Shown: positions 2,836-48,222 of the stretch, one piece after another
Layout: every line of letters starts with the position of its first letter
Position numbering within the stretch: position 1 is the first letter of the stretch
Made by a program: the position numbers and the translations under genes
Notes under the pieces: model-generated
Seen by the model: the letters and a program-made list of their open reading frames with translations, nothing else
What the model was told of the DNA's origin: nothing
Databases searched by the model: none
Assembly: GCA_023205875.1 (NCBI GenBank)
Contig: CP060758.1
Coordinates: 310,001-374,000 of the forward strand
Reading direction: 5' to 3'
Source of the DNA: Chloropicon primus
Taxonomy: Eukaryota
DNA: 64,000 bases

Positions 2836-3264
2836 ACGATTCCCCTCGTCTCCAAGGGTCGCTTCGCGCCTTTCGCCCCCCTTGTCCAGCATGTAACGTT
2901 ACCTATAAAAAAGTTCAGTATACGTAACGTTACAAACAAAAACTAGGGATTTGGGATGGAGTTTATATAACGGCATGAAGCGAAAGCGAATCGGATAAAT
3001 CGTCACGTGGGGGAACGATGGGATCGAGGAGACAGACCCCTTTGGCGCGCGCGGCAAGACAGACAGAGAGAGACAGAGAGAGAGAGAGAGGGAGGGAGGG
3101 AGGTGTGCGTGATCTTGGGAGTTTTTTTCGAGTGCGTCGAGAGGGAGCGTCTCTTTTTCCTCTTTCGAACGAGACCTCGGTCGAGAGAAACGACCCAGGG
3201 GTGAGGATTTTAGACAGAGGGAGAGGAGCAGAGCGAGCGAGCGAGCGAGACAGAGAGAGAGGGT

Positions 3265-5211
3265 ATGGCGACGGTCGTGAGGACAGAGGACGACGTTGCG
3301 GGAAAGGACGCGTCGTCGAAGCCCCTGCAGCTCCCGCGGCAGATCGAGAGGAAGCTGGAGATGCGCGCGACGGCCCTGAGGCGTTCCAGGCGCCGCGTCG
3401 TCGTCCTCGAAGGAAACGCTCGGGATGATGCCGACGTTGTTGTTGTTGCTGATGATGTCGAAGGTGGCGAGCTGAGCGAGAGGCTCGCGCGCGCGGAGCA
3501 GCTGAGGCAGTCGCTTCTGGAGGAGAGGAGCAAGAGGGCGAGGAGGCTCTCTTTCGAGAACGTGGAGAGGGCGAGGGAGAGGCGGGCGAGGGAGAGGATC
3601 AAGCAGTGCTTCCTGGAGGCAGCGAGGGCGGCGAGGGTGAGGCTGGCGAGGAAGAGGAGGAAGAGCGAGATCGAGGAGCTCATGAGGAGAGCCGCGGCGA
3701 AGAATGCGAGGGTGCACAGCGTGAGGGATGCGGTGAGGGCCAAGGAGAGCGAGGAGAGGGTGAGCAGGGAGAAGGCCCTCGCGTGCAGGCTGAGGCTGGC
3801 CGAGCGCAGGAGGGGGGAGAACCTCAGGAGGTCTCCCCGGTCCCCAAAGTCTGCCGCCCTGGCTTCTCGAAGCGGGGGGGGTCCGAGGAGGGAGGCCGCG
3901 GCGTGCGTCCTCATTCAGAGGCGGTGGAGGGAGGCCCGGGAGGTCCGCGCCGCGAGGCTCTTCGCCGCCGCGGTCCCCAAGTGGTTCCTCGCGAGGGCGG
4001 GGGCGGCAGCCTCCGGGGGCGAGGACTTGCCGACCCCCGAGGGGGTGGACCGCGACTACCTGGCCTACAAGAGGTTCGAGGAGTGCTCTGCGGTCGTGCG
4101 GCGACCTTCGGTCCTCCGGGCCACGTCGTGCCTGCTGCAAAGGGTCGCCCAGAGGGGGGGGTCGCCACCCCCCGGAAACCCCGCCCGCGAGGCGAGGACA
4201 TTCCTCGCCGCGTTCATGATCGTCCTCCACCCGGAGATCGTGATGTCAAGGAAGCTCAAGGCGGTCGAGGAGGTCCTCCAAGAGGAGTCCTCGGCGCTCG
4301 TGCGAGCTTTCCTCGACGAGGTGGTGGCGGAGAGGAAGGGGAACCGGGCCGAGGAGTTCGAGGGGAGGCTTCGCAGCCACAGGGCGGCGTTCGAGACCTG
4401 GAAGAAGGACGACGCGGCGGCCTTGGAGGGCGACCTGATCAAGATGGCCCGCGATCTGACGGCCTCCGTTCTCGCCAAGTGCGGCCCAGACCTTGAGGCC
4501 CGGCACGTGACCTCCAACCCGGACTTGAGGGCAATGGTGGAGGCGCTGGGCAACGACAGGAGGCTGCTGACCAGCAAGGTCAAGTCCCTGGCGGGGGTGG
4601 AGGGGGTCCAGAGGATGGAGGAAGCGGTCAGATCCTGCGTAGCCGAATTCGAGGAGGAGTACCGCAGAAAGGTCTCGGAGAGAGGGAGGGAGAGCGGGGG
4701 CGGGGACGGGGACGGGGCCGACGACGCGGTGAGCGGGGCGGAGAGGTTGGAGTGCGCCTTCAGGGCGGCGATGGCCGATTTGATCCGGGAGAGCGTCGAG
4801 AAGGGGGAGTACGACCACGTCCTCCGCCTTTGGGACGAGGTTCGGGACAGGCTCATGAGGCTCTCCGGCTCGTCCCCCCGGGAGAGGGAGAGAACGGCCC
4901 AGTGCATCGACTGCGACTACGCGAGGGAGCTGGTCAAGGATCGAGCCATGGACAGCAGCATCCTTGCGGACATGATGCAGCTCGCCTCCCGGCGGATCGG
5001 GGAGCTCGGGGCCGCGGCGTACGAGCGGGAGACCCTGGAATGGGGCCTTTTGAGCGCGCAATTGATGAGAGAGTCGGAGTCCGCCGGAAGCGTCCTCGCC
5101 CAGTTCTTCCAAGACGCGGACGTGCTCCTCACTCGGATCGAGGCAGGGATCGCCGCAAGCCTGCTGTGCCAGGCTCTGACTTCGGGGGCGTCCAAGGAGA
5201 TGGCGTCTTGA
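3265..5211 (+). CDS. T-complex protein 11 (TCP11) domain protein
   Basis: 648-aa ORF; R-rich coiled-coil N-terminus, IQ-like LIQRRWR, RTFLAAFMIVLHPEIV and FETWKKDD motifs typical of TCP11/SOK1 family. Confidence 0.7.
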   Translation: MATVVRTEDDVAGKDASSKPLQLPRQIERKLEMRATALRRSRRRVVVLEGNARDDADVVVVADDVEGGELSERLARAEQLRQSLLEERSKRARRLSFENVERARERRARERIKQCFLEAARAARVRLARKRRKSEIEELMRRAAAKNARVHSVRDAVRAKESEERVSREKALACRLRLAERRRGENLRRSPRSPKSAALASRSGGGPRREAAACVLIQRRWREAREVRAARLFAAAVPKWFLARAGAAASGGEDLPTPEGVDRDYLAYKRFEECSAVVRRPSVLRATSCLLQRVAQRGGSPPPGNPAREARTFLAAFMIVLHPEIVMSRKLKAVEEVLQEESSALVRAFLDEVVAERKGNRAEEFEGRLRSHRAAFETWKKDDAAALEGDLIKMARDLTASVLAKCGPDLEARHVTSNPDLRAMVEALGNDRRLLTSKVKSLAGVEGVQRMEEAVRSCVAEFEEEYRRKVSERGRESGGGDGDGADDAVSGAERLECAFRAAMADLIRESVEKGEYDHVLRLWDEVRDRLMRLSGSSPRERERTAQCIDCDYARELVKDRAMDSSILADMMQLASRRIGELGAAAYERETLEWGLLSAQLMRESESAGSVLAQFFQDADVLLTRIEAGIAASLLCQALTSGASKEMAS

Positions 5212-12873: not shown

Positions 12874-13044
12874 ACTTTTTTCACTTCTTTCCCCTCGCGT
12901 GTTCGCGTCCTCCTCCAATCCTCACCGCTGGGTCGTTTCTTTCGCGCGACGGCTCGTTCAAAACAGCAAGAGACGACGCTTCTGCTCGTCCCAATTCCTC
13001 CGTCTCTCCGCTTCCCCGACGCGCGCTCCAGTCCTCGCTTGTTT

Positions 13045-33280: not shown

Positions 33281-34063
33281 TCACCTCTTTTTCGTGTACA
33301 GGCAAGCCTCGAGGAGTCCTGCCGGCGGATCGATCTCGCAAAAGCCTCCCTGCGTGTCGACCACTGGCACAATCTCCCTGGCGAACGGAACCAAAACGCA
33401 GACCTTGGCCCGCTTCCTCTTGCTGGCTTCCACTTCGGATTCCTTTCCGAGCCTCCTGCTGTACGAGTCGCAGACTTCGATGTCGAGCGTGTCGTGGACT
33501 CCCGTGCCGGAGAAGACGTCAACGACCACACCCAAGTCGACTGGATCCTCCTCCCCCCCTTCCTGCCTGACGCGAGCCCGCAGGCCAACCAAGTCCTGGG
33601 CATAAAACTCCGAGTCCCCGTCGAGCTCGTCCCTCTCGTCCGTCCTCACCAACAGGGTGTGCCCCTTGACCGCCTCCGCCTCGTCCCTGCTGGACACATT
33701 GTCGAGCTTCAGCAGGTACGCGAGCTGACCCCGGTTCGTCACGGTGCGCGCGAACTGTATTTCCATCCGCACCGGGTCCTCACTCTCTTCGAATATGCTC
33801 GCCTTTCGACGCAACCAGCTGTTCTTCCCGGGACGAAACCTGTCCTCGGCCGAGTCCGTCAGGGGCTTCACGCGGACCTCGCCACGCAGGCCGTGGGCAC
33901 CCGTCACGACGCCAACCTTCACCCACTCCACGCCCGCCTCTCCCTCCCCGGCGACCCTGCACCTCGCCGTCCTTCGCGGAGGCCGGGGCCCAAGAGCGCC
34001 GAAGCGCTTGCCCTCGCGCCTCCACCGCTTCTCAGCAGCACGGGGCGAAGCTCTGGCAAGCAT
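33281..34063 (-). CDS. rimM: Ribosome maturation factor RimM, plastid-type
   Basis: VGVVTGAHGLRGEVRV, SRDEAEAVKG, EFYAQDLVGL, LVPFAREIVPVVD, PPAGLLE; transit-like N-terminus. Confidence 0.92.
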   Translation of the reverse strand: MLARASPRAAEKRWRREGKRFGALGPRPPRRTARCRVAGEGEAGVEWVKVGVVTGAHGLRGEVRVKPLTDSAEDRFRPGKNSWLRRKASIFEESEDPVRMEIQFARTVTNRGQLAYLLKLDNVSSRDEAEAVKGHTLLVRTDERDELDGDSEFYAQDLVGLRARVRQEGGEEDPVDLGVVVDVFSGTGVHDTLDIEVCDSYSRRLGKESEVEASKRKRAKVCVLVPFAREIVPVVDTQGGFCEIDPPAGLLEACLYTKKR

Positions 34064-34169
34064 CCTGATGAGCTATTTTGCGCCAACGCCGCGGCGTCTC
34101 TCGAGTTCCCTCTTTTGTTATGGTGTTCAGACATCAGATCAAAACAGCACACAGAAAAGTCACGAAAGG

Positions 34170-34244
34170 ACGGTAGGGAAATCACAGTCAATACTGGAAG
34201 CACAAAGGCAAGTTCTCCTTTCCACTGAAAGAGAGAAACACGGA
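34170..34244. repeat. 75-bp direct repeat, copy 1 (candidate Fanzor element end)
   Basis: ACGGTAGGGAAATCACAGTC...GAGAGAAACACGGA is identical to 37899-37973; flanks differ on both sides. Confidence 0.95.
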
Positions 34245-34429
34245 GAGAAATGGAGACCGGCCCCTACTTACCTGTTAGTTTTCTGCAAAGGTCGTTTCAC
34301 CGAGTTTGTAAGTTTCTCGGCAGGGTAATTCAGCCCTACCACGACCATTCCACCGTACATGAACGAATACTTCCGCCCACTTAGCGCACGGCAGCCCGTA
34401 CTAACAAACGTATGTGCAACCCTGAGGAG
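34170..34429 (-). ncRNA. Candidate Fanzor omegaRNA/fRNA scaffold
   Basis: Directly 3' of the Fanzor stop; nested complementary segments 34273-34279/34400-34406, 34290-34295/34341-34346, 34300-34304/34316-34320, 34319-34325/34334-34340, 34386-34391/34396-34401; ends are inferred. Confidence 0.65.
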
Positions 34430-36670
34430 TTACACACTTTTTGGTTGACGCAAGTGCTTCAGGAGGACGTTGCGTGCCCCGTTCACATCCCGACCGCACT
34501 TGAAGCCACACTTCTGGCACTTGTACACCTCTGCTCCACCCAGGTTGTCCTTGATGTGTCCGCACCTGCCACAGGTCTTGGAGGTGTACTCCTCCGTCAC
34601 GATCGCCAGCTCACTGCCGTGCAAGAGCACCTTGGAAGCCAAGAACGTTCTGAACGCATAGTGCCTCAACGTCAAGAGCGTGCGAGCCGTCTTCTTCCTG
34701 ATCACTCGGCGTCTCCCGTTGTTGTTCTTCTTCACCATGTCTTGGGACTTGAACTCCGGGAGGAGGATTGTGTCGAACCTCCTGCATAGATCGTTGGCTA
34801 CCTTTTTGTGAAGCTCGTTCGTCAGACCTCGAAGTTTCTCCATGCAGGCGTATTGCTGTCTCTTCAAGTCGCGGCGGTCGAGGTAAGGGAGCTTCACCTT
34901 TGGGTCTTTGCGCTCGGAAATGATCTTATCAATCCTCCAGCAGAGGTTGAACAGCCTCGCGAAGCCTCGCTCGCCCTTGGCATACTCCCCGACGCCTTCT
35001 TGCGGCGAGTACGACGTCTGAAAGGTCCTGACTCCCGGATCCAGGGCGACAACCTTCCGCTTGTTCTCAGGCTTCAGGGGTGGCAGGCGATCCCATGGCG
35101 TCGCGATGGGAATGTGCATGTGGAACTGCCCAAGGCGATTTCTTGTGATCTTCACGGCACCCTCGATCTTGCCCCCGGGGATCTCCTCCGTCAAGTACAG
35201 GGGCCCGCCGGCCATCTTCTCCTTGAACACCTCCAGCTTGGTCCACTTGCGTCGTTTCTTGTGCTTCGTGTCATCCTTGTGCCTCGTGTTTGGCCTTTCG
35301 ATCGTCTCCACGTTCTTTAAGTCTCTTGCATTAATTTCAATGGTCCAAGAGCTCGGTTGCTGACGTTGACGATACTTGAGAACGAAGCGGTGCCCCTTCT
35401 TCTCGCCGCGCTCCTTCATCGCTTCCTGCTTCGCGGTGTTCGAATCCCATGCCTTGATGAGACTTCGCACGGCAGCTTGTCTGATGGCACAGGGGGTATC
35501 CTTCAGCCAAGGATGCTTCTGATTCACAAAGGCCCCGCTAACGTAGTCCCGGTCCTTGGCCACTTCGGCGCGAAATCGTCTGCCTCCAATGAGGCTGACG
35601 AGTCTCTTCTCTCTGGCCGCCTCCTGTTTTGTCCTTCGCTTGGGAGAGCATTGGATTTCTTTCAGCTCTTTCTCCAGGCCCTCAAAGACCTCAGGGCCTC
35701 GCGGTTTGGCCGTCACAAATCTGTCCAGCAGGACGTTCCAAACCAGCGGAAAACCCTCCTTCTTGACCGCCTCCAAACACTTGTTGTATGTGAAACGCGC
35801 AGCTCCCATCCAGTTGCAAAGTGTTCTCGCCTGCTCAGGGTCCAAGCGCATCCTAAGCTTCCTCGTCCGTATCACCGTTCGCTCCGACAATAGCTTGGAG
35901 GTCTTCAGCTTCTGCTCCCTCTTCCTTTTGGCGGGCGGCTGCAATGTCTCGACGGATACCACAGAATCTTCTGGAAGGTTCAAGCACGACCTCCATCCCG
36001 TCTTCGGACACTTTACCTCTTCAAGTTCTCTCTTCATCGATGAGAACCAGGTCTTCTTCACGCTGTCGTCCGCCAAGCCACCCGGCTGCTTCCCTGCTTT
36101 CTTCCCCCTCTTGTTCTTCTTCTTCTTACCCTTCTTCTTGTTCTTCTTCTTGCCCTTCTTGCGAGGCTTCTTGCGAGGCTTGCCTGACGAGCTCGAACTC
36201 TCACCCGCAGAGGAAGCCGCCTCCGGCGGCTTCCCCTTCCGCTTCCCCCCCCGCTTCTTGCGAGGCGTGCTCGAACCCTCCTCGAAAGCAGAGGCGGGGT
36301 CGTCCAGCGGCGTCTCCTTCCGCTTCCCCCCCCGCTTCTTGCGAGGCGTGCTCGAACCCTCCTCGAAAGCAGAGGCGGGGTCGTCCAGCGGCGTCTCCTT
36401 CCGCTTCCCCCCCCGCTTCTTGCGAGGCGTGCTCGAACCCTCACCCGCAGAGGCGGGGTCGTCCGCGATAGGAAGCATGCACAACGCGTAGAGCAACGCT
36501 AAACCCTGATTCCAGAACCGACGTAACGGCCGCTCCGTCGTCGGAGACTCCTGCCCCGACTTCGAAGCGCCCTGAGCATGACTCTCGCCAGAGTGCGACC
36601 TCCTTGTGGAACTCGTCGAGCCACTCCCCTGCTTCTCCTTTTTCTTACGGCGCTTCCCTGATCGCGCCAT
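34430..36670 (-). CDS. Fanzor: Fanzor2-type RNA-guided DNA endonuclease (eukaryotic TnpB/IS607-OrfB homolog)
   Basis: RTRKLRMRLDPEQARTLCNWMGAARFTYNKCL (OrfB HTH/WED start), RuvC-I VVALDPGVRTF, ILLPEF, alternative RuvC-II VTEEYTSKTC, zinc finger CGRC...CQKC, RuvC-III RDVNGARNVLL; intronless, 746 aa. Confidence 0.95.
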   Translation of the reverse strand: MARSGKRRKKKEKQGSGSTSSTRRSHSGESHAQGASKSGQESPTTERPLRRFWNQGLALLYALCMLPIADDPASAGEGSSTPRKKRGGKRKETPLDDPASAFEEGSSTPRKKRGGKRKETPLDDPASAFEEGSSTPRKKRGGKRKGKPPEAASSAGESSSSSGKPRKKPRKKGKKKNKKKGKKKKNKRGKKAGKQPGGLADDSVKKTWFSSMKRELEEVKCPKTGWRSCLNLPEDSVVSVETLQPPAKRKREQKLKTSKLLSERTVIRTRKLRMRLDPEQARTLCNWMGAARFTYNKCLEAVKKEGFPLVWNVLLDRFVTAKPRGPEVFEGLEKELKEIQCSPKRRTKQEAAREKRLVSLIGGRRFRAEVAKDRDYVSGAFVNQKHPWLKDTPCAIRQAAVRSLIKAWDSNTAKQEAMKERGEKKGHRFVLKYRQRQQPSSWTIEINARDLKNVETIERPNTRHKDDTKHKKRRKWTKLEVFKEKMAGGPLYLTEEIPGGKIEGAVKITRNRLGQFHMHIPIATPWDRLPPLKPENKRKVVALDPGVRTFQTSYSPQEGVGEYAKGERGFARLFNLCWRIDKIISERKDPKVKLPYLDRRDLKRQQYACMEKLRGLTNELHKKVANDLCRRFDTILLPEFKSQDMVKKNNNGRRRVIRKKTARTLLTLRHYAFRTFLASKVLLHGSELAIVTEEYTSKTCGRCGHIKDNLGGAEVYKCQKCGFKCGRDVNGARNVLLKHLRQPKSV
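36236..36464 (-). repeat. 81-bp in-frame tandem repeat (~3 copies) encoding DDPASAFEEGSSTPRKKRGGKRKETPL
   Basis: GCTTCCCCCCCCGCTTCTTGCGAGGCGTGCTCGAACCCTC starts at 36241, 36322 and 36403. Confidence 0.95.
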
Positions 36671-36676
36671 GACTGC

Positions 36677-36800
36677 TAGGGTTTCACTCGCCGTCCTCGT
36701 CCCTCGTCCCTCGCGACAAACTCAACCGATCGATCGATCGTCTGCCAACTCGAACTGACGCTGCTCTCTCTCTCTCTCGAGGCGCGAAAATGTTTTCAAA
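36677..36800 (-). promoter_or_regulatory. Putative Fanzor promoter with host-type motifs (CHR-like TTTGAA, E2F-like TTTTCGCGCC, GATC repeats, telo-box AAACCCTA)
   Basis: Minus strand reads TTTGAAAACATTTTCGCGCC (36800-36781), CGATCGATCGATCG (~36727-36740) and AAACCCTA (36684-36677) just upstream of the ATG. Confidence 0.4.
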
Positions 36801-37118
36801 TCCCCCCCAAAAGAAGCGAAATCACTTGTAAATTTATTACACTCGTTTCGATACACAGGGCGAGGTTTGTTTTTCAGGGGAGGGGGTCGAACTCTTCGTT
36901 CTGGTGGATTTCTCCCTTCCGCTGAACCATCATAACGGCCGAGCACGAGGGCGAACCAGGAGGAGGGAGAGAGAGAGAAGGGGGACGGGAGAGCGCGGAG
37001 GAGGAAGAGGGAGGCGGAGGACCGGACAGAAGGAAGCGTCGTCTCGTGCTCTTTCGAAAGAGCCCTCGCTCGAAGAGAACGACCCGGTGGTGAGGATCTG
37101 AGGAGCACGGGCGTGAAG

Positions 37119-37860
37119 ATGGCGGTGACAGGGGGAGCGAGCAAGAGGCAGAGGACGGAGGGATGCGCTGGAGGTGCTTCCCGAGTGGGCGTGGTTCCTG
37201 GTCTTGAAGCAGCTGGACGATTACGACCACCTTGCTTTTGGGGTTGACCTGCAGGACGTTCCTCGAGGCGGTGACGAAGGCGACGAGCCCCGAGGAGAAG
37301 AAGAAGGCTCGCCTGAGGACGGACCTGTCGCAAGAGAAGTTGTTCGATCAGATGCCTTCCTTCACTTTGGGTTGGTACCAGCGGATGTTCCAATCGTTCA
37401 AAAGGAAGAAGTCTCGGAGATTTGAAAGAAAGAAGGGAGCACGGTTCAATTTTGTACCTCTGTATGGACACTCCAACTACTTGTACCTCTCCGACTACAC
37501 GTACGACGTCGAGCTGATGTACCTCGCCGCTTTCCAGGGCAGCAAGAAGGTGATGAAGTGGCTGGTGAGCCAAGGGATCCCTTTGGGTATCATTCTTCGC
37601 GGTTTACCTCATGAGGAGCGGTAGCAGTTGAAAGAGCTGCTGAAGGAGGTCACATTGATGTTCTGGAATGGTTGAGGAGCGAGGGGTGCGGGTTTGGTGA
37701 GGAGGCTTGTGCGGGTGCAGCTCGAGGAGGCCACCTTGACGCTCTGCAGTGGCTTCGAAGCCTGGAACCGCCTTGCCGTTGGAGCGGGTGGACTTCTTTT
37801 AGTGCAGCTCAAGGAGGCCACCTTCATATTCTCAAGTGGCTTCGAAGCCTGGATCCCCCA
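37119..37860 (+). pseudogene. F-box-like plus ankyrin-repeat protein pseudogene (AA.GGHL..L.WLR type), frameshifted and 3'-truncated
   Basis: Joining three frame changes gives EVLPEWAWFLVLKQLDDYDHLAFGLTCRTF...YLAAFQGSKKVMKWL...AAEGGHIDVLEWLRSEG...AARGGHLDALQWLRSLEPPCRW...AAQGGHLHILKWLRSLDPP, then homology breaks off. Confidence 0.8.
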
Positions 37861-37898
37861 GAATATCTCTCTCTTCTGCAATATCTTTCTCTTCTACA

Positions 37899-37973
37899 AC
37901 GGTAGGGAAATCACAGTCAATACTGGAAGCACAAAGGCAAGTTCTCCTTTCCACTGAAAGAGAGAAACACGGA
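37899..37973. repeat. 75-bp direct repeat, copy 2
   Basis: Identical to 34170-34244. Confidence 0.95.
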
Positions 37974-38024
37974 TCGAACCAGGATAGTTCCAAAGGCTAC
38001 AGACAAGGTAGACCTTCAAAGGGG

Positions 38025-38262
38025 AACGCTCGTGAGGTGCAGTTCACCGAACGAGATACAGAGGCGCCACAGAGTGAAGTACTACAGACCAAACAAGTAC
38101 TGGCTGAGTACTGAACAAGGGCAGTAACGCTCGTGAGGTGTAGTTCACCGAACGAGATGCAGTAACGCTCGTGAGGTGTGGTTCACCGAACGAGACGCAG
38201 AGGTGCAGTAGTGCGAAGTACTACAGACCAGCAAGTATTGGCTGAGTACTGAACAAGTGCAG
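38025..38262. repeat. Tandem hairpin-containing repeat (two ~100-bp units and one 38-bp partial)
   Basis: AACGCTCGTGAGGTGYRGTTCACCGAACGAGA at 38025, 38126 and 38164; the first and third copies are followed by a shared GAAGTACTACAGACCA...TGGCTGAGTACTGAACAAG. Confidence 0.9.
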
Positions 38263-38387
38263 CAAGTATGCAAACAATAAGATTGCAGATAAACAACTCG
38301 ACGATCAACAACGTCGACAGGATTCTCCTTCGAATGATCCTCTTCTCCAGCTCCCTCCTCACTATGTCTTCCCAAAAAAACATGCGG

Positions 38388-38428
38388 GTTGTAGTTGTAG
38401 TTGTAGTTGTAGTTGTAGTTGTGGTTGT
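38388..38428. repeat. (GTTGTA)n hexanucleotide microsatellite
   Basis: Direct read. Confidence 0.9.
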
Positions 38429-39482
38429 CCTTTGGGTGTGACCAAACTGGTATACACTGGAATCCCACCAACAGGGGAAAACCTCCAACATCTGTTTCTG
38501 TCTGTCATACACCCCTTACCCGCTCTGTACACTGTTCGGACGATCTTGGATTTCCGCCGCCCTCTGGATCCAGGATCATATTTCCTTAATCAAGTCCAAG
38601 GTTCACCATTGTAATGGCATTTCGTGGTATGCTACGTGAGACGTTGCACGAAAGTTTCCACCCTTGGAACCCCCAAGACGTTCTCTCTGTTTGATGTTAC
38701 CCTCACTGTTCTGTTTTTCGTTATCGTCTGAGACAGAATCCTTCACGGAAGGGCTCGTCCAGTAGTCCGGTGGTTTTGCTGGAGGCGAGGGGCTCTGCTC
38801 GAGGGAATATACGCCCAACGCGAGGCTTCCAGCTTGACACAACTCACCTTCACCTTCACCTTCATCGCAGGCTCCTGGGATCCCATCACCTGTCAAGCAC
38901 CAAGACGAGGGGCAGACCAAAGCATAGACCCAGAGGCTTGGCTTGACTGGCTCGGCTCTTGTGTGCCGGGTGTGCCGGGTGTGGCGTGTGCTTGTTTTTG
39001 CGGTCACTAGTTTTGGTTCGAGTCTGCTCAGCTTGCCTTGGTGGGCTGGAGGCAGAGACAGAGCAGAGGCAGGAAGAGAGAGGGCAGAGGTTCTGCTTGG
39101 CTTGGCTTGGCTGGTTTTGGAGTTAAATTCTTGCTTGCTGTGGACTAAAGCGGCGGCTGGCCTTTCGGTTTTGTCGACTCTTGTGGAGGAGATCGCTTTG
39201 ATAATACTCTTACTGGGATGAAAGTAGCAAGACCTGTGGACTAGCCAAGGAAACGTGTTGTTCTTTAAGGGTGGGCAGCCAAAGGAGACGGATTCTGCCT
39301 GCTAAGCATGCACTAGAAATCATTGTCCATCAAAGCTTGAGTCGACAAACTTAGCTTGCCTGTGTTGTGCTGAGATAGTAGGCTAGGCGTGGCCTCTCCA
39401 AGTGAAGTTGAAGAAGGCGTGTGTGTGCGTGTGCGTGTGCGTGTGTGTATAAGTGTGAAATCCGCTAGACGACTGCTGCAGT

Positions 39483-40658
39483 ATGGTGTTCAAAAGGAAA
39501 ACGTCCAAGCCGAAGACTGACGTCGAGATGGCTTCAGCGAACAACGGAGACAGGCAAGATGTGCGAAAGAGCTTGGATCTGGAGTCCCAGGACTCGGTGC
39601 ACAGGAGTTTAGGAAGCCAGAGCAGCCTGACCCCCTCGGACGCCCAGCTCCAGATCTTCGACGAGCTCGACCAGATCGAGCAGAAAGGCATCAAGGCGGC
39701 GCACCAGCACAGGAGGAGTAGCAACAAGAGCGTGTCCATCATCGAGAAGATGCTGAACAGGGACGATGACCAGAAAGGTATTAGGACGACTCAGAACGTG
39801 TTCAAGCAAGCCATCGATCCGAGGAACACGTCAAGGTTGCGCTGGGATTTTGTCATCGTGCTGGCAGTTCTTTACAACTGCCTCGTCATCCCCCTGCGTA
39901 TTGGTTTTGGTGATGACAAGTTCGGCCCCTTCTCCGCCATCGACTTGCTCATCGATCTGATGTTCATGTCGGACATCTTTGTAAACTTTGTCACGGGGTA
40001 CTTCAGGACCGTCAAGGAGACGGGCGAGCAGCAGCTTGTTTTGAGCCAGCCCGCGGCTGCGTATCACTACGCCAGGACCTGGTTCTTCTTCGACACGATA
40101 GCGTCGCTGCCGGTGGACTTCATGCTTCTTCTGCAAGTGTCCCCCAAGGTTCTCCTGTATATGAGGTTCCCAAGAATGCTGCGTTTGCTGAGGCTTCCAA
40201 GGCTGTTCAGGTACATGAAGAGGTGGGAGGAGTACATCGGCTTGAAGCCTCAAGTGCTTCGTCTGTGCAAGACAATCTTCTTGCTGTTCGTTTTCGCCCA
40301 CTTCTCGGCGTGCATTCAGTTCTTCGCTGCGCAGTTGCAAGACTTCCCCGCAGACTGTTGGGTGGCCAAAGCCAAGTTGGTGCAGAAGCCAAAGATGGAG
40401 CAGTACGCGTACTCGCTGTTCACGGCTCTTTCCCATATGCTTTGTATTGGTTACGGACCAACGGCGGGACCAACGAACCTCACGGAAGTGTGGCTGATCA
40501 CCATCTCCATGTGTATCGGTGCCTCGTTCTACATTATCCTGGTCGGTATGATCTCTTCGACGCTCGTGGATGCGGATCAGAACAGGTCAAGGGGAAGAGA
40601 AGGGGTCAGGGCCATGTCTGTGTCATCGCGCATGAGCTTTTCTGGAGATATAGTGTAA
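39483..40658 (+). CDS. HCN-like 6-TM voltage-gated cation channel lacking C-linker/CNBD, paralog 1
   Basis: IDPRNTSRLRWD (S1), YARTWFFFDTIASLPVD (S3), RMLRLLRLPRLFRY (S4), ALSHMLCIGYG pore; stop ~30 aa after S6. Confidence 0.85.
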   Translation: MVFKRKTSKPKTDVEMASANNGDRQDVRKSLDLESQDSVHRSLGSQSSLTPSDAQLQIFDELDQIEQKGIKAAHQHRRSSNKSVSIIEKMLNRDDDQKGIRTTQNVFKQAIDPRNTSRLRWDFVIVLAVLYNCLVIPLRIGFGDDKFGPFSAIDLLIDLMFMSDIFVNFVTGYFRTVKETGEQQLVLSQPAAAYHYARTWFFFDTIASLPVDFMLLLQVSPKVLLYMRFPRMLRLLRLPRLFRYMKRWEEYIGLKPQVLRLCKTIFLLFVFAHFSACIQFFAAQLQDFPADCWVAKAKLVQKPKMEQYAYSLFTALSHMLCIGYGPTAGPTNLTEVWLITISMCIGASFYIILVGMISSTLVDADQNRSRGREGVRAMSVSSRMSFSGDIV

Positions 40659-45851: not shown

Positions 45852-46199
45852 ACCCGGACGACAGGATAATGATAGTCAGTATGATTGATACCATTTGATG
45901 TAAACAAGTTTATTTTATTCCAACGCTCTCACGAATTTCCTCTCTTGAACTACTCACTTGCCGAATATATTTTCCATTCTGATGGTTGGGAGGGGTGGAG
46001 TGGAAAAAGAGACAGGAGGCATAAGCCGCGCGACAATTCAATCATAAAGTATATTTTCTCAAGATAAGGCACATCTCGGTCCTATGTGTCAGGGCCCACC
46101 TCGTCAATTTTGTGACGAATCGTGAACCATTCAGCAGTCCGTGACAGTGTTCGGAGACGCGTCTGAGCCCTTGGTTTTCTCTGGCCAGTGGAGCAAGTC

Positions 46200-47480
46200 C
46201 ACTATAGGTGAATGATCGTGAATTATCTTTGTTACTCGCAGGCAAGTATTAATAATCATTCTTTTCCTTCCTTGTTCATAAACGCTTTATCACTGCTTCC
46301 CCTTTTCGCATTCTAAATCCACCCAAGTCATTCCATCCACGAAAGCTTCAAAATCTGAAGCGCTTCGTCCTACTACCTACCTACCTACAACTATGCCCTG
46401 CGCCAATAGTAGCTGTATCAGAAAAAATTGTAGGAGGAAATTCTAACGATACGTTACGTCGTCGTTGAAATGAAAGGAGTAAAACTTCTTAAACATACAC
46501 GTTTATGCACCGCTGTTCCCACGATAAAATAAGCAATAATGCTATCTCATAATAATGGAAAAAAAGAATAATTGAAAAACCCGCTCAAGAGTAATAATTT
46601 CGATATATCTATGTGAATTAAATGCAGTTAAACATGATTTTCAAATATAGGAAGTGGACTACAGCATTACCCATTTTTGTCATATTATTTTGTGCTTTGG
46701 GAGACCAACAGACAACAATCAACAGGCACCCCCCCCCCAAATATATATATATATATATATAGCAATAAATAATAAATGAAAAATCTTAAACGTAGTCCCT
46801 GCACTAACAATAAGCAACTCCTCGTAAATATTAGGTGTCAACATAACAAGATATAGCTATGCCTCAGAGAAGAAGAGTTTGAAGAGAATTACATTGATGC
46901 CATTTAGGTCGTGATATAGGTTGCATATTGAAAAGAATAGTCATCGTGGTTGAGAGACTGTTTTGAAAGAGAAGAGAAGAGGCAGATCGACTAATGATTG
47001 GAGGAGGCAACAAGGTAATCTCGTAACTTTTGGAGTTAAAATAGTTTTTTTTTATGATTGCATTTCGATATGAAACAACATGTGTTGAATTGTTTAAAAA
47101 CCAAGTTAAGTTGCCTTTTCGAAGAATGACACAACGTTGAGGTATCAAATGGAACATGGAGAAAAGATGATATTCATTGGATGATTTGGTTGAAGCAGGA
47201 AAAATATCGTGCTATATCAAACGGCAATTACTCACTTTGACAATATCCTCGTTTGTCAAGTTTTCACTTCAGAATATAAAAAAAAATGGAATGAAAGTCG
47301 AAAACATGCCCTGTCGAACAAATGAGGGAGAAAAACTCGATATTTCAATTTGTTTCAAGCATTACTTCTGAAATGACACCGAAGTACGTCAATGTAAGCG
47401 AGAAAGTAATTTTTTTTATTATAATGCGTGAAAAACCTTTTTTCATGTTATTCCTTGGCAGATAAACCCATACGCGCACG
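46200..47480. other. AT-rich island without convincing ORFs
   Basis: Visibly much lower GC than flanking genes, with A/T runs and (AT)n at ~46741-46761; boundaries approximate. Confidence 0.7.
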
Positions 47481-48222
47481 TTTGGCAGTTTGTCAACTCT
47501 GCTGCTGTTTTGGTGAAGCTTGCCCATTCAAATCGAATTGCTTGGGTTACAAAAATGCAATGCTTCGCATGCAGTAGGGGCTCTTGTTGCATTGCAGAAG
47601 GGCAGACAAGTGAAGTTGCGGTGTGGGGAAGGGTCGATTGTTGGAGTCAGTGGTAGAGCTTATTCACCACGAAGGCCATGAGAGAATATCTCGTTGTGCT
47701 CCATTACGACGGGTTTAACTCCTGCGATGTTTTTTTCCTTCTCCATCACGATCCATCACGGCGTGCTGCAGGGGCTTGTCAGTGATGAATACTTTGGAGT
47801 ACACAAATTAGCCTTGAAAGGAACAGGGACTTTTCAGGCACGCACCGCTTTAACTGTAATAATTTCGAAAGAGCTAGAAAATCCGCTTGATGCTCTCCGT
47901 CTTGGGTTTGGGCCTCTTTCAATGAAGCGCGACGCCACAATACATTGTTGGCGCTTATATTATGTTGTTGCTCCTCTAGTTTCTATCGAGATCCCTGCTT
48001 TGACCTTTCGTCGCCTGCTTCTGATACAGATGTACAAGAATAACAAAGGGGTTATATCTTTGTGCGTTCTCCCGCCGTAGGATGCTCGTCTATCACCGGG
48101 CAATGCCTTTCTCGTCCTTTTTTTCCGCTCTCCTTTTGTTTCCCCCCCAAAATGATCAAGAGATCTTGAAAATTGTGGCCAAGAGAGAGATCTCAGACGA
48201 GGTCGAGGTAGAGAGGAAGAGG

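Follow-up and report, generated by a model that had tools for sequence, protein, structure and literature searches.

A spliceosomal intron may join host sequence to the guide RNA scaffold of a Fanzor2 element in Chloropicon primus

In the TnpB and Fanzor systems described so far, the guide is contiguous with the RNA scaffold at the element end, an arrangement that is thought to restrict the transposons able to carry these nucleases. How, then, could a guide be made within an element whose own end lies far beyond the scaffold? This question is raised by a Fanzor2 gene of the alga Chloropicon primus, which we analyzed in a DNA stretch of 64,000 nucleotides (nt) (contig CP060758.1 of assembly GCA_023205875.1, positions 310,001 to 374,000; hereafter the window, numbered from its first letter). 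We propose, with a probability of roughly 0.6, that the spliceosome removes the 156-nt right terminus of the element and joins the host flank to the guide RNA (omegaRNA) scaffold as the guide of the predicted nuclease. The locus is a member of a known family, Fanzor2*, with a likely new route of guide biogenesis. The features concerned are collected in Table 1, and the cited papers enter the comparison through passages of their text and supplements, to which statements about them refer.

Table 1. Positions of the element, its parts and its surroundings in the window
Feature	Position	Strand	Basis or remark
Whole non-autonomous element, 5'-TGTT...AACA-3', degenerate terminal inverted repeat	34116..38490	-	Contig starts; published insertion end
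Fanzor2 open reading frame, 746 amino acids	34430..36670	-	D544/E693/D728, C4 zinc finger, HTH_OrfB, basic low-complexity N-terminus
Three 81-base-pair tandem repeats, N-terminal coding region	36207..36449	-	Siblings of 722-723 amino acids have two
Predicted omegaRNA scaffold	34272..34437	-	Fold and alignment of six 3' flanks; 5' limit provisional
GT-AG intron, 160 nt in the window copy	34112..34271	-	Donor CAG/GTAAGT at 34272/34271, 156-nt terminus, predicted acceptor 34113-34112
26 nt flanking the right end: first 4 nt, the last two being AG; predicted guide at 34111-34091	34090..34115	-	Missing next to 34089 on the allele without the element
Canonical left end of the element, 72 nt	38419..38490	-	Match to Chromosome_17 row, PMC6731263 Supplementary Data 8
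Patchwork of about 1.7 kilobases in place of about 80 nt of canonical left subterminal region	36688..38418		
Frameshifted ankyrin-repeat gene fragment, multicopy family	37119..37905	+	Three-frame translation; high summed depth in runs X1 and X3
Exact 75-base-pair direct copy of 34170-34244 (part of the intron)	37899..37973	+	
Host rimM gene	33281..34063	-	ATG 48 nt past the predicted acceptor, same strand

The open reading frame (ORF) runs without an internal stop and its active site is intact, as a preliminary description of this DNA had stated. The RuvC triad is formed by D544 (ALDPGVR), E693 (the first glutamate of VTEEYTSKTC) and D728 (RDVNG), which align to D324, E467 and D501 of ApmFz2, the mimivirus Fanzor2 (numbering from PMC11832414). 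The triad, the zinc-finger cysteines C700, C703, C718 and C721, and the RuvC-I motif D544-P545-G546, which belongs to the definition of Fanzors (PMC10711439), are invariant in 19 aligned sequences. The same is true of P638 (ILLPEF), which occupies the canonical glutamate site and aligns to a glutamate of a Cas12m chain, while the alternative RuvC-II glutamate, E693, lies just upstream of the zinc finger. Pfam detected HTH_OrfB_IS605 and a Cas12f1-like TNB domain. Homology and structure searches agreed on Fanzor2: the ApmFz2 structure (PDB 9B0L) ranked first both by sequence (E 6e-20, or 9e-40 when a profile of 14 sequences was used) and by fold (E 1.5e-17), whereas the Fanzor1 protein SpuFz1 appeared only at fold rank 49, as fits a compact, TnpB-like fold nearer to ApmFz2 and the IS607 TnpBs than to Fanzor1. 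In a FastTree phylogeny of 140 sequences, a set without Fanzor1, the window protein fell into a 21-sequence clade (support 0.99) that includes loci with the IS607 protein TnpA; the resolvase domain was found by Pfam, in the correct frame, at locus L005, and TnpA at the other related loci by the Y.RVS motif alone. The residues R194, H215 and E260, with which ApmFz2 reads its target-adjacent motif (TAM), lie outside the aligned stretches, so the structure gives no TAM prediction here.

The preliminary description had also assigned the protein a disordered N-terminus of about 260 amino acids (aa). This was mostly borne out, with a predicted local distance difference test score below 50 at residues 1-49, 71-215 and 245-261, except that the islands 50-70 and 216-244 are of higher confidence and carry motifs common to relatives. 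These ordered islands probably represent the N-terminal domain of Fanzor2, interrupted by the three repeats of 81 base pairs (bp) and a poly-K tract. An insertion in the REC region, likewise proposed there, is real; it is a predicted helical hairpin (H327-341, H348-374) whose length ranges from 0 to about 60 aa among relatives, and in the window copy it lacks 4 residues that are present in 16 of 16 aligned siblings. The protein is longer than its siblings because of the third 81-bp repeat, minus this deletion.

The top homologs are C. primus "putative IS605 transposases" of 86-98% identity, among them P0002 (UPR03652.1), 95% identical to the core of the window protein, which belongs to a 46-member protein cluster. 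Its eukaryotic origin is indicated by this 95% match to C. primus nuclear proteins on chromosome-sized contigs and by neighboring algal genes such as rimM; among the loci retrieved from metagenomes, none was a C. primus copy, and the best were 53-57% identical. The family is already in print: Lemieux 2019 (PMC6731263) described 25 copies in C. primus, 23 of them with an RNA-seq depth of at least 19, and Yoon 2023 (PMC10711439) named the C. primus proteins Fanzor2*, listing UPR03652.1 in Table S3 and placing them in cut-and-paste elements with target site duplications (TSDs) and degenerate terminal inverted repeats (TIRs). The novelty implied for the protein by the preliminary description thus falls away, and its "probably uncharacterised" holds for biochemistry, as the literature searched contains no activity data for the family, but not for the name. 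Its Fanzor2 call and its active site stood, whereas the omegaRNA, the element ends and the intron between scaffold and flank had been overlooked.

The position at which the scaffold ends is decisive for the question posed above. Downstream of the ORF, a terminal long-range helix pairs 34405-34400 with 34279-34274 and is followed by two bases (AG) up to 34272. Across the window and five relatives, 35 of 36 cells of this helix are paired, with compensatory changes at four of the six pairs. This support lies above that of shuffled sequences (0-3 of 500) and of all six slid controls, although the helix and the five comparison loci were picked by eye from these same sequences and the pseudoknot topology itself lies outside the test. 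Loci L003, L006, L007 and L060, in which the helix is absent or the sequence is cut short, were left out of this alignment. Two bases ending in G follow the helix in all six aligned flanks. When 153 related 3' ends were compared by eye, 14 of their 16 groups of near-identical loci diverged directly after ...CG(G) or ...CAG. In known systems, the CboTnpB scaffold terminates in UCGG (PMC10690162), and the ApmFz2 pseudoknot is built from scaffold nucleotides -4 to 0 (PMC11832414). Because the helix end, the divergence points of the relatives and these two scaffold ends agree, we strongly infer from sequence comparison that the scaffold ends at 34272, which would be the position of the ancestral IS607 right end, 156 nt inside the present element. 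Plain folding of the 3' flank is weak evidence alone (z -1.66; 11 of 200 shuffles equally good), unconstrained folds often lack the terminal helix, and Rfam gave no credible match over 33900-38700 (a single match, E 0.92).

The element itself ends further out. Its right end was set by contigs of two sequencing runs, X2 and X4, in which various flanks meet the element at 34115/34116. Supplementary Data 8 of PMC6731263 gives three heterozygous full-length insertions of 2664-2707 bp; two of these rows begin at the right end of the window element, and one gives a left end that matches window 38490-38419 (at most 400 letters compared per row, with long-read errors in two rows). The termini, 5'-TGTTGG... 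at 38490 and ...ATAACA-3' at 34116, form a degenerate TIR like those of Fanzor2*, and the window element is a rearranged copy of the family element of about 2.65 kilobases (kb). A left end at 36687, 17 nt upstream of the ATG, was rejected, since the published left end matches 38490. No TnpA-like ORF was found upstream of the Fanzor2 ORF and the element runs 156 nt past the scaffold, which sets it apart from IS607-encoded Fanzor2. The 20-nt pattern of the terminus had 0 matches in viral and prokaryotic genome contigs.

The gap between scaffold and terminus has the features of an intron. A CAG/GTAAGT donor lies on the minus strand at the exact scaffold end, and it is the only CAGGTAAGT on either strand of the window. 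An AG-free zone of 80 nt (34193-34114), a length reached by 98 of 9203 AG-free gaps in the window, precedes the first AG past the terminus, and this first flank AG (34113-34112) would serve as the acceptor of the window copy. We compared assembled contigs over 34040-34440 between the DNA run X2 and the putative RNA runs X4, X5 and X6. One host flank, whose first two bases are AG, follows the terminus (34115) in X4. In X6, from a separate study, this flank instead follows the donor and starts with its third base, which gives a clean GT-AG junction. X5 contains two further flanks, joined at 34270 and 34272 (contigs of 1555 and 817 nt), together with a 31-nt single-word branch contig at 34271-34301. 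In sibling-copy contigs of the putative RNA runs, three different host flanks are thus joined at the donor. Contig depth on the exon side exceeds that of the intron by 1888:105 in X5 and 282:34 in X4, whereas in X2 a 60-nt contig crosses the donor (depth 4700) and exon side and intron stand at about 3600-4900:3197. The stretch 37991-39500, which is covered in X1, is left uncovered by X4 and X6, as expected for RNA. The donor is also present in two published full-length insertions (PMC6731263), and all five legible right flanks of six (the window, two in X4 and two published rows, the sixth being one in X5) have an AG no more than 5 nt from the terminus; the chance of this is 0.27 per flank and 0.0013 for five, or 0.005 without the flank chosen for being spliced. 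The marks of a U2-type intron are thus present for sibling copies: a GT donor, an AG acceptor and joined RNA on contigs of the putative RNA runs, and DNA that keeps the intron in X2.

On this basis we suggest the following route. The Fanzor mRNA would run through the scaffold, and the spliceosome, which joins the donor to the first flank AG past the terminus in the contigs of sibling copies, would use 34272/34271 in the same way in the window copy. The product would be a scaffold directly joined to host sequence, with the same geometry as in the IS607 ancestor, and in the window copy the RNA would run on into rimM. By analogy with the family, the Fanzor would bind the spliced RNA, trim it to the scaffold plus about 20 nt, presumably enter the nucleus through its basic N-terminus, and cut flank-matching DNA about 20 nt beyond a TAM whose last two bases should be AG. 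To judge from the TnpB and Fanzor literature, the break may promote element retention or allelic spread in the diploid host. The intron would let an IS607-derived scaffold work in a host element whose end is too distant to join the scaffold. The first 9 nt of the predicted guide (34103-34111) also occur 21 nt into one X5 flank spliced at 34272; the chance of this is about 1%, a rough value from 30 visible letters.

Several points weigh against this proposal. The RNA status of X4, X5 and X6 is a guess, the comparison of the silent stretch 37991-39500 covers X4 and X6 but not X5, and the DNA run and the RNA runs are different samples. The junctions come from assembled contigs, which give neither strand nor level and in which depth is a rough measure; none of the loose ends listed for X2 lies at the donor, the listing for the four runs being short of three loose ends and 34 pieces. 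The spliced joins stem from sibling loci, with X1, X4 and X5 carrying the element-free allele at the window site. The closest relatives with available DNA, L001 and L002, have no GT directly after the scaffold end, so the evidence for the intron comes from the C. primus family. The distinction between self and non-self is also a difficulty: with the acceptor AG in the flank, an AG-ending TAM and its target are kept in the filled allele, and in the window copy all 4 bases upstream of the protospacer are flank. The window copy has private changes in the REC insertion and several private substitutions. Finally, according to Yoon et al. (PMC10711439), the TIR and TSD appear to form part of the Fanzor2* scaffold, which contradicts our proposal for C. 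primus.

An unlikely alternative, but the explanation that survives best after ours, is that the intron is real and serves the mRNA or its tolerance by the host, linking a 3' untranslated region to host exons, while the Fanzor loads unspliced RNA with a fixed, element-derived guide or with none that functions. Such unspliced RNA may be represented by an X4 contig at 34141-34301 (depth 34); the gene models P0004 and P0135 fuse the Fanzor to downstream host exons, and a fixed guide would spare unique host DNA. However, the donor sits on the exact base of the predicted scaffold end, for which an intron in an untranslated region offers no reason, and the bases after the donor differ between copies (34263, 34265) and match, in the window, the element alone. 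In P0004 and P0135 the fusion to ankyrin-like and SET-domain exons runs through a donor in the last codons; these models probably reflect faulty gene prediction at loci whose transcript is spliced into host genes.

The second alternative concerns the segment beside the right end. At the window site there is no TSD and the local 215 bp are missing: X1 contig 1 joins 34089 to 38491 via 215 other bases and, because it spans these positions, the X1 sample is without the insertion here. In the published rows, 25 and 26 nt of unexplained sequence stand at the same place at the right end in two insertions, and 3 nt at the left end in the third (PMC6731263). It is distinctly unlikely, in our view, that the spliced guide is loaded but the ribonucleoprotein acts chiefly on its own locus, with a cut about 22 nt beyond the acceptor that helps to define or mobilise the element (by excision with 25-26 nt of flank, or by cutting both copies of a 25-26-bp TSD) and does not restore empty sites. 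In three loci, the segment from the terminus to the breakpoint, as defined by the element-free allele, measures 26, 26 and 25 nt; counted from the AG, the lengths are 22, 22 and 23 nt, near the nicks reported at 19-20/15-21 for ApmFz2 and 21-22 for TvTnpB (PMC10530073). The window segment is not duplicated at the left end, the locus resembles a product of multi-template repair, and the terms "integrase", "DDE", "Cas1" and "recombinase" are absent from the species-specific orthogroup file, although this check took in 2 of 69 "transposase" rows. Against such cutting, the two published rows are no less well explained by a fixed 25-26-bp TSD from an unseen transposase, clear TSDs are described by Yoon et al. 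(PMC10711439), the third published row has 3 nt alone before the left end, and the spacing rests on three loci, two of them in rows with long-read errors. The 25-26-nt stretch fits a long TSD, scars of self-cutting or a carried donor flank, and the window argues against a local TSD. A combination of both ideas, in which the spliceosome makes a guide from the first AG of any landing site and cutting of the own locus about 22 nt past the AG helps to excise or move the element with a guide-sized flank, would describe an RNA-guided mobile element without a transposase of its own; we regard it as doubtful.

It is very improbable that the junctions at 34270-34272 arose through deletions in the DNA or through misassembly and that the element is an ordinary Fanzor2* copy. 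The data consist of contigs only, with guessed RNA status and different DNA and RNA samples, and the family does form deletion derivatives (X1 joint 34173-38287). Yet the flank shared by X4 and X6 obeys GT-AG exactly, one donor is joined by three independent flanks while a DNA contig crosses it unbranched, and the depth skew between exon and intron is confined to the putative RNA runs. It is scarcely credible that the protein is a decayed or non-cutting passenger of a rearranged copy, for although the left subterminal region is replaced and the protein has its 4-residue deletion and private substitutions, the catalytic and zinc ligands are all kept, the changes lie mostly within the variable insertion, and the scaffold helix and donor are intact.

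Returning to spliceosomal guide assembly, we compared the locus with four known systems. It shares with the Fanzor2* of C. primus (PMC10711439) the protein family and a TIR-type, non-IS607 element. In the passages compared, TIR and TSD appear to belong to the Fanzor2* scaffold, and no intron is mentioned; in the window, by contrast, the helix stops at 34274, well short of the terminus at 34116, which is spliced out in sibling transcripts, and a spliceosomal intron would bridge the gap, while the copy lacks a TSD and its left arm is rearranged. ApmFz2 of the ISvMimi Fanzor2 element (PDB 9B0L, PMC11832414) has the same shifted triad, N-terminal domain, basic leader and terminal pseudoknot-type helix, but there the guide reportedly continues without a break across the element end into flanking sequence; the window protein differs further in its REC hairpin of about 60 aa and its longer, repetitive N-terminus. 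IS607-type Fanzor2 elements with a serine recombinase (such as L004 and L005) belong to the same clade and share the terminal helix, after which come two bases, the second a G, whereas the window element has no TnpA, ends in TGTT...AACA and retains the old right end as an exon end. The nearest precedent is provided by the IStrons, combinations of a group I intron with IS605 or IS607, in which splicing and a guide RNA likewise meet at one transposon 3' junction (PMC10690162). Their effect is the opposite: self-splicing of the IStron severs the scaffold from the guide, and spliceosomal splicing here would join them.

Assembly of a Fanzor guide by a spliceosomal intron is described nowhere in the full-text literature searched, which lies mostly outside subscription journals and includes passages of PMC13565253 (a 2026 review), PMC10690162 (the IStron preprint), the Jiang preprint and paper (PMC10530073) and PMC12633428; figures 2A, 4A and S3 of PMC10711439, outside this comparison, may depict the element ends and an RNA model. 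Known solutions absorb TIR and TSD into the scaffold, and splicing the terminus out would be a different one, available only to eukaryotes. If our proposal is true, the length and sequence of the element end are freed, TAM and insertion preference become tied to the AG acceptor, and guide choice comes under splicing control; it also suggests a design in which an RNA polymerase II transcript programs a compact nuclease by splicing. If the ORF were expressed with its raw 3' flank in E. coli, the RNA would stay unspliced and carry element sequence where the guide belongs, because the intron separates the scaffold from the flank. The host is a cultured alga with about 25 expressed, polymorphic copies, and a guide of its own can be predicted for each, which makes the proposal directly testable.

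The left arm of the window copy is a patchwork of a host piece, a broken ankyrin-repeat gene, a copy of the element's own intron and short tandem repeats. The host piece (36687-36890) is single-copy and internal to a 17-kb contig of X1, and the ankyrin fragment is recognized by Pfam (Ank_4, E 2.7e-8, at 37621-37905). The 75-bp direct repeat was considered as a long TSD or a long terminal repeat and rejected, since it is a part of the element's own intron copied inside the element. On the host side, the insertion replaces 215 bp that lie upstream of rimM in X1, and contigs of X4 and X5 reach 103-120 nt into these 215 bp; on the inserted allele, rimM may depend on the transcript of the element. 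The X1 joint 34173-38287 points to an apparent short derivative that has both ends but no Fanzor, and the terminal 55 bp of the element are deeper in coverage than the rest of the right arm. At 35986, an X4 loose end joins the scaffold end and donor to a point inside the Fanzor ORF, with CGG instead of CAG before the donor, which suggests a nested or deleted copy.

Some relatives occur in other settings. L003, 53% identical, lies between 78-bp inverted repeats and 247-bp direct repeats (727-1471, 3316-3638) and is without the usual scaffold helix; it represents either a further capture that took place independently or a Fanzor2 that uses another kind of RNA. In L075 and L060, related Fanzor2 genes lie between TA-flanked inverted ends with the scaffold helix kept, and these ends resemble those of what we take to be a Tc1/mariner element. 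In L005 (220-2245), L006 and L004, the ORFs of IS607 TnpA and Fanzor2 overlap by hundreds of bases in different frames, and the Fanzor N-terminal domain is encoded within tnpA.

Upstream of the ankyrin fragment, a motif of about 77 nt (37033-37109) recurs at 12906-12982 (inverted) and 3133-3209 with 77-82% identity and appears in many loose-ended contigs in all four runs examined; it may be a promoter or 5' motif common to members of the expanded ankyrin family. Elsewhere in the window, positions 46001-48000 have a G+C content of 38-40%, compared with about 57% window-wide.

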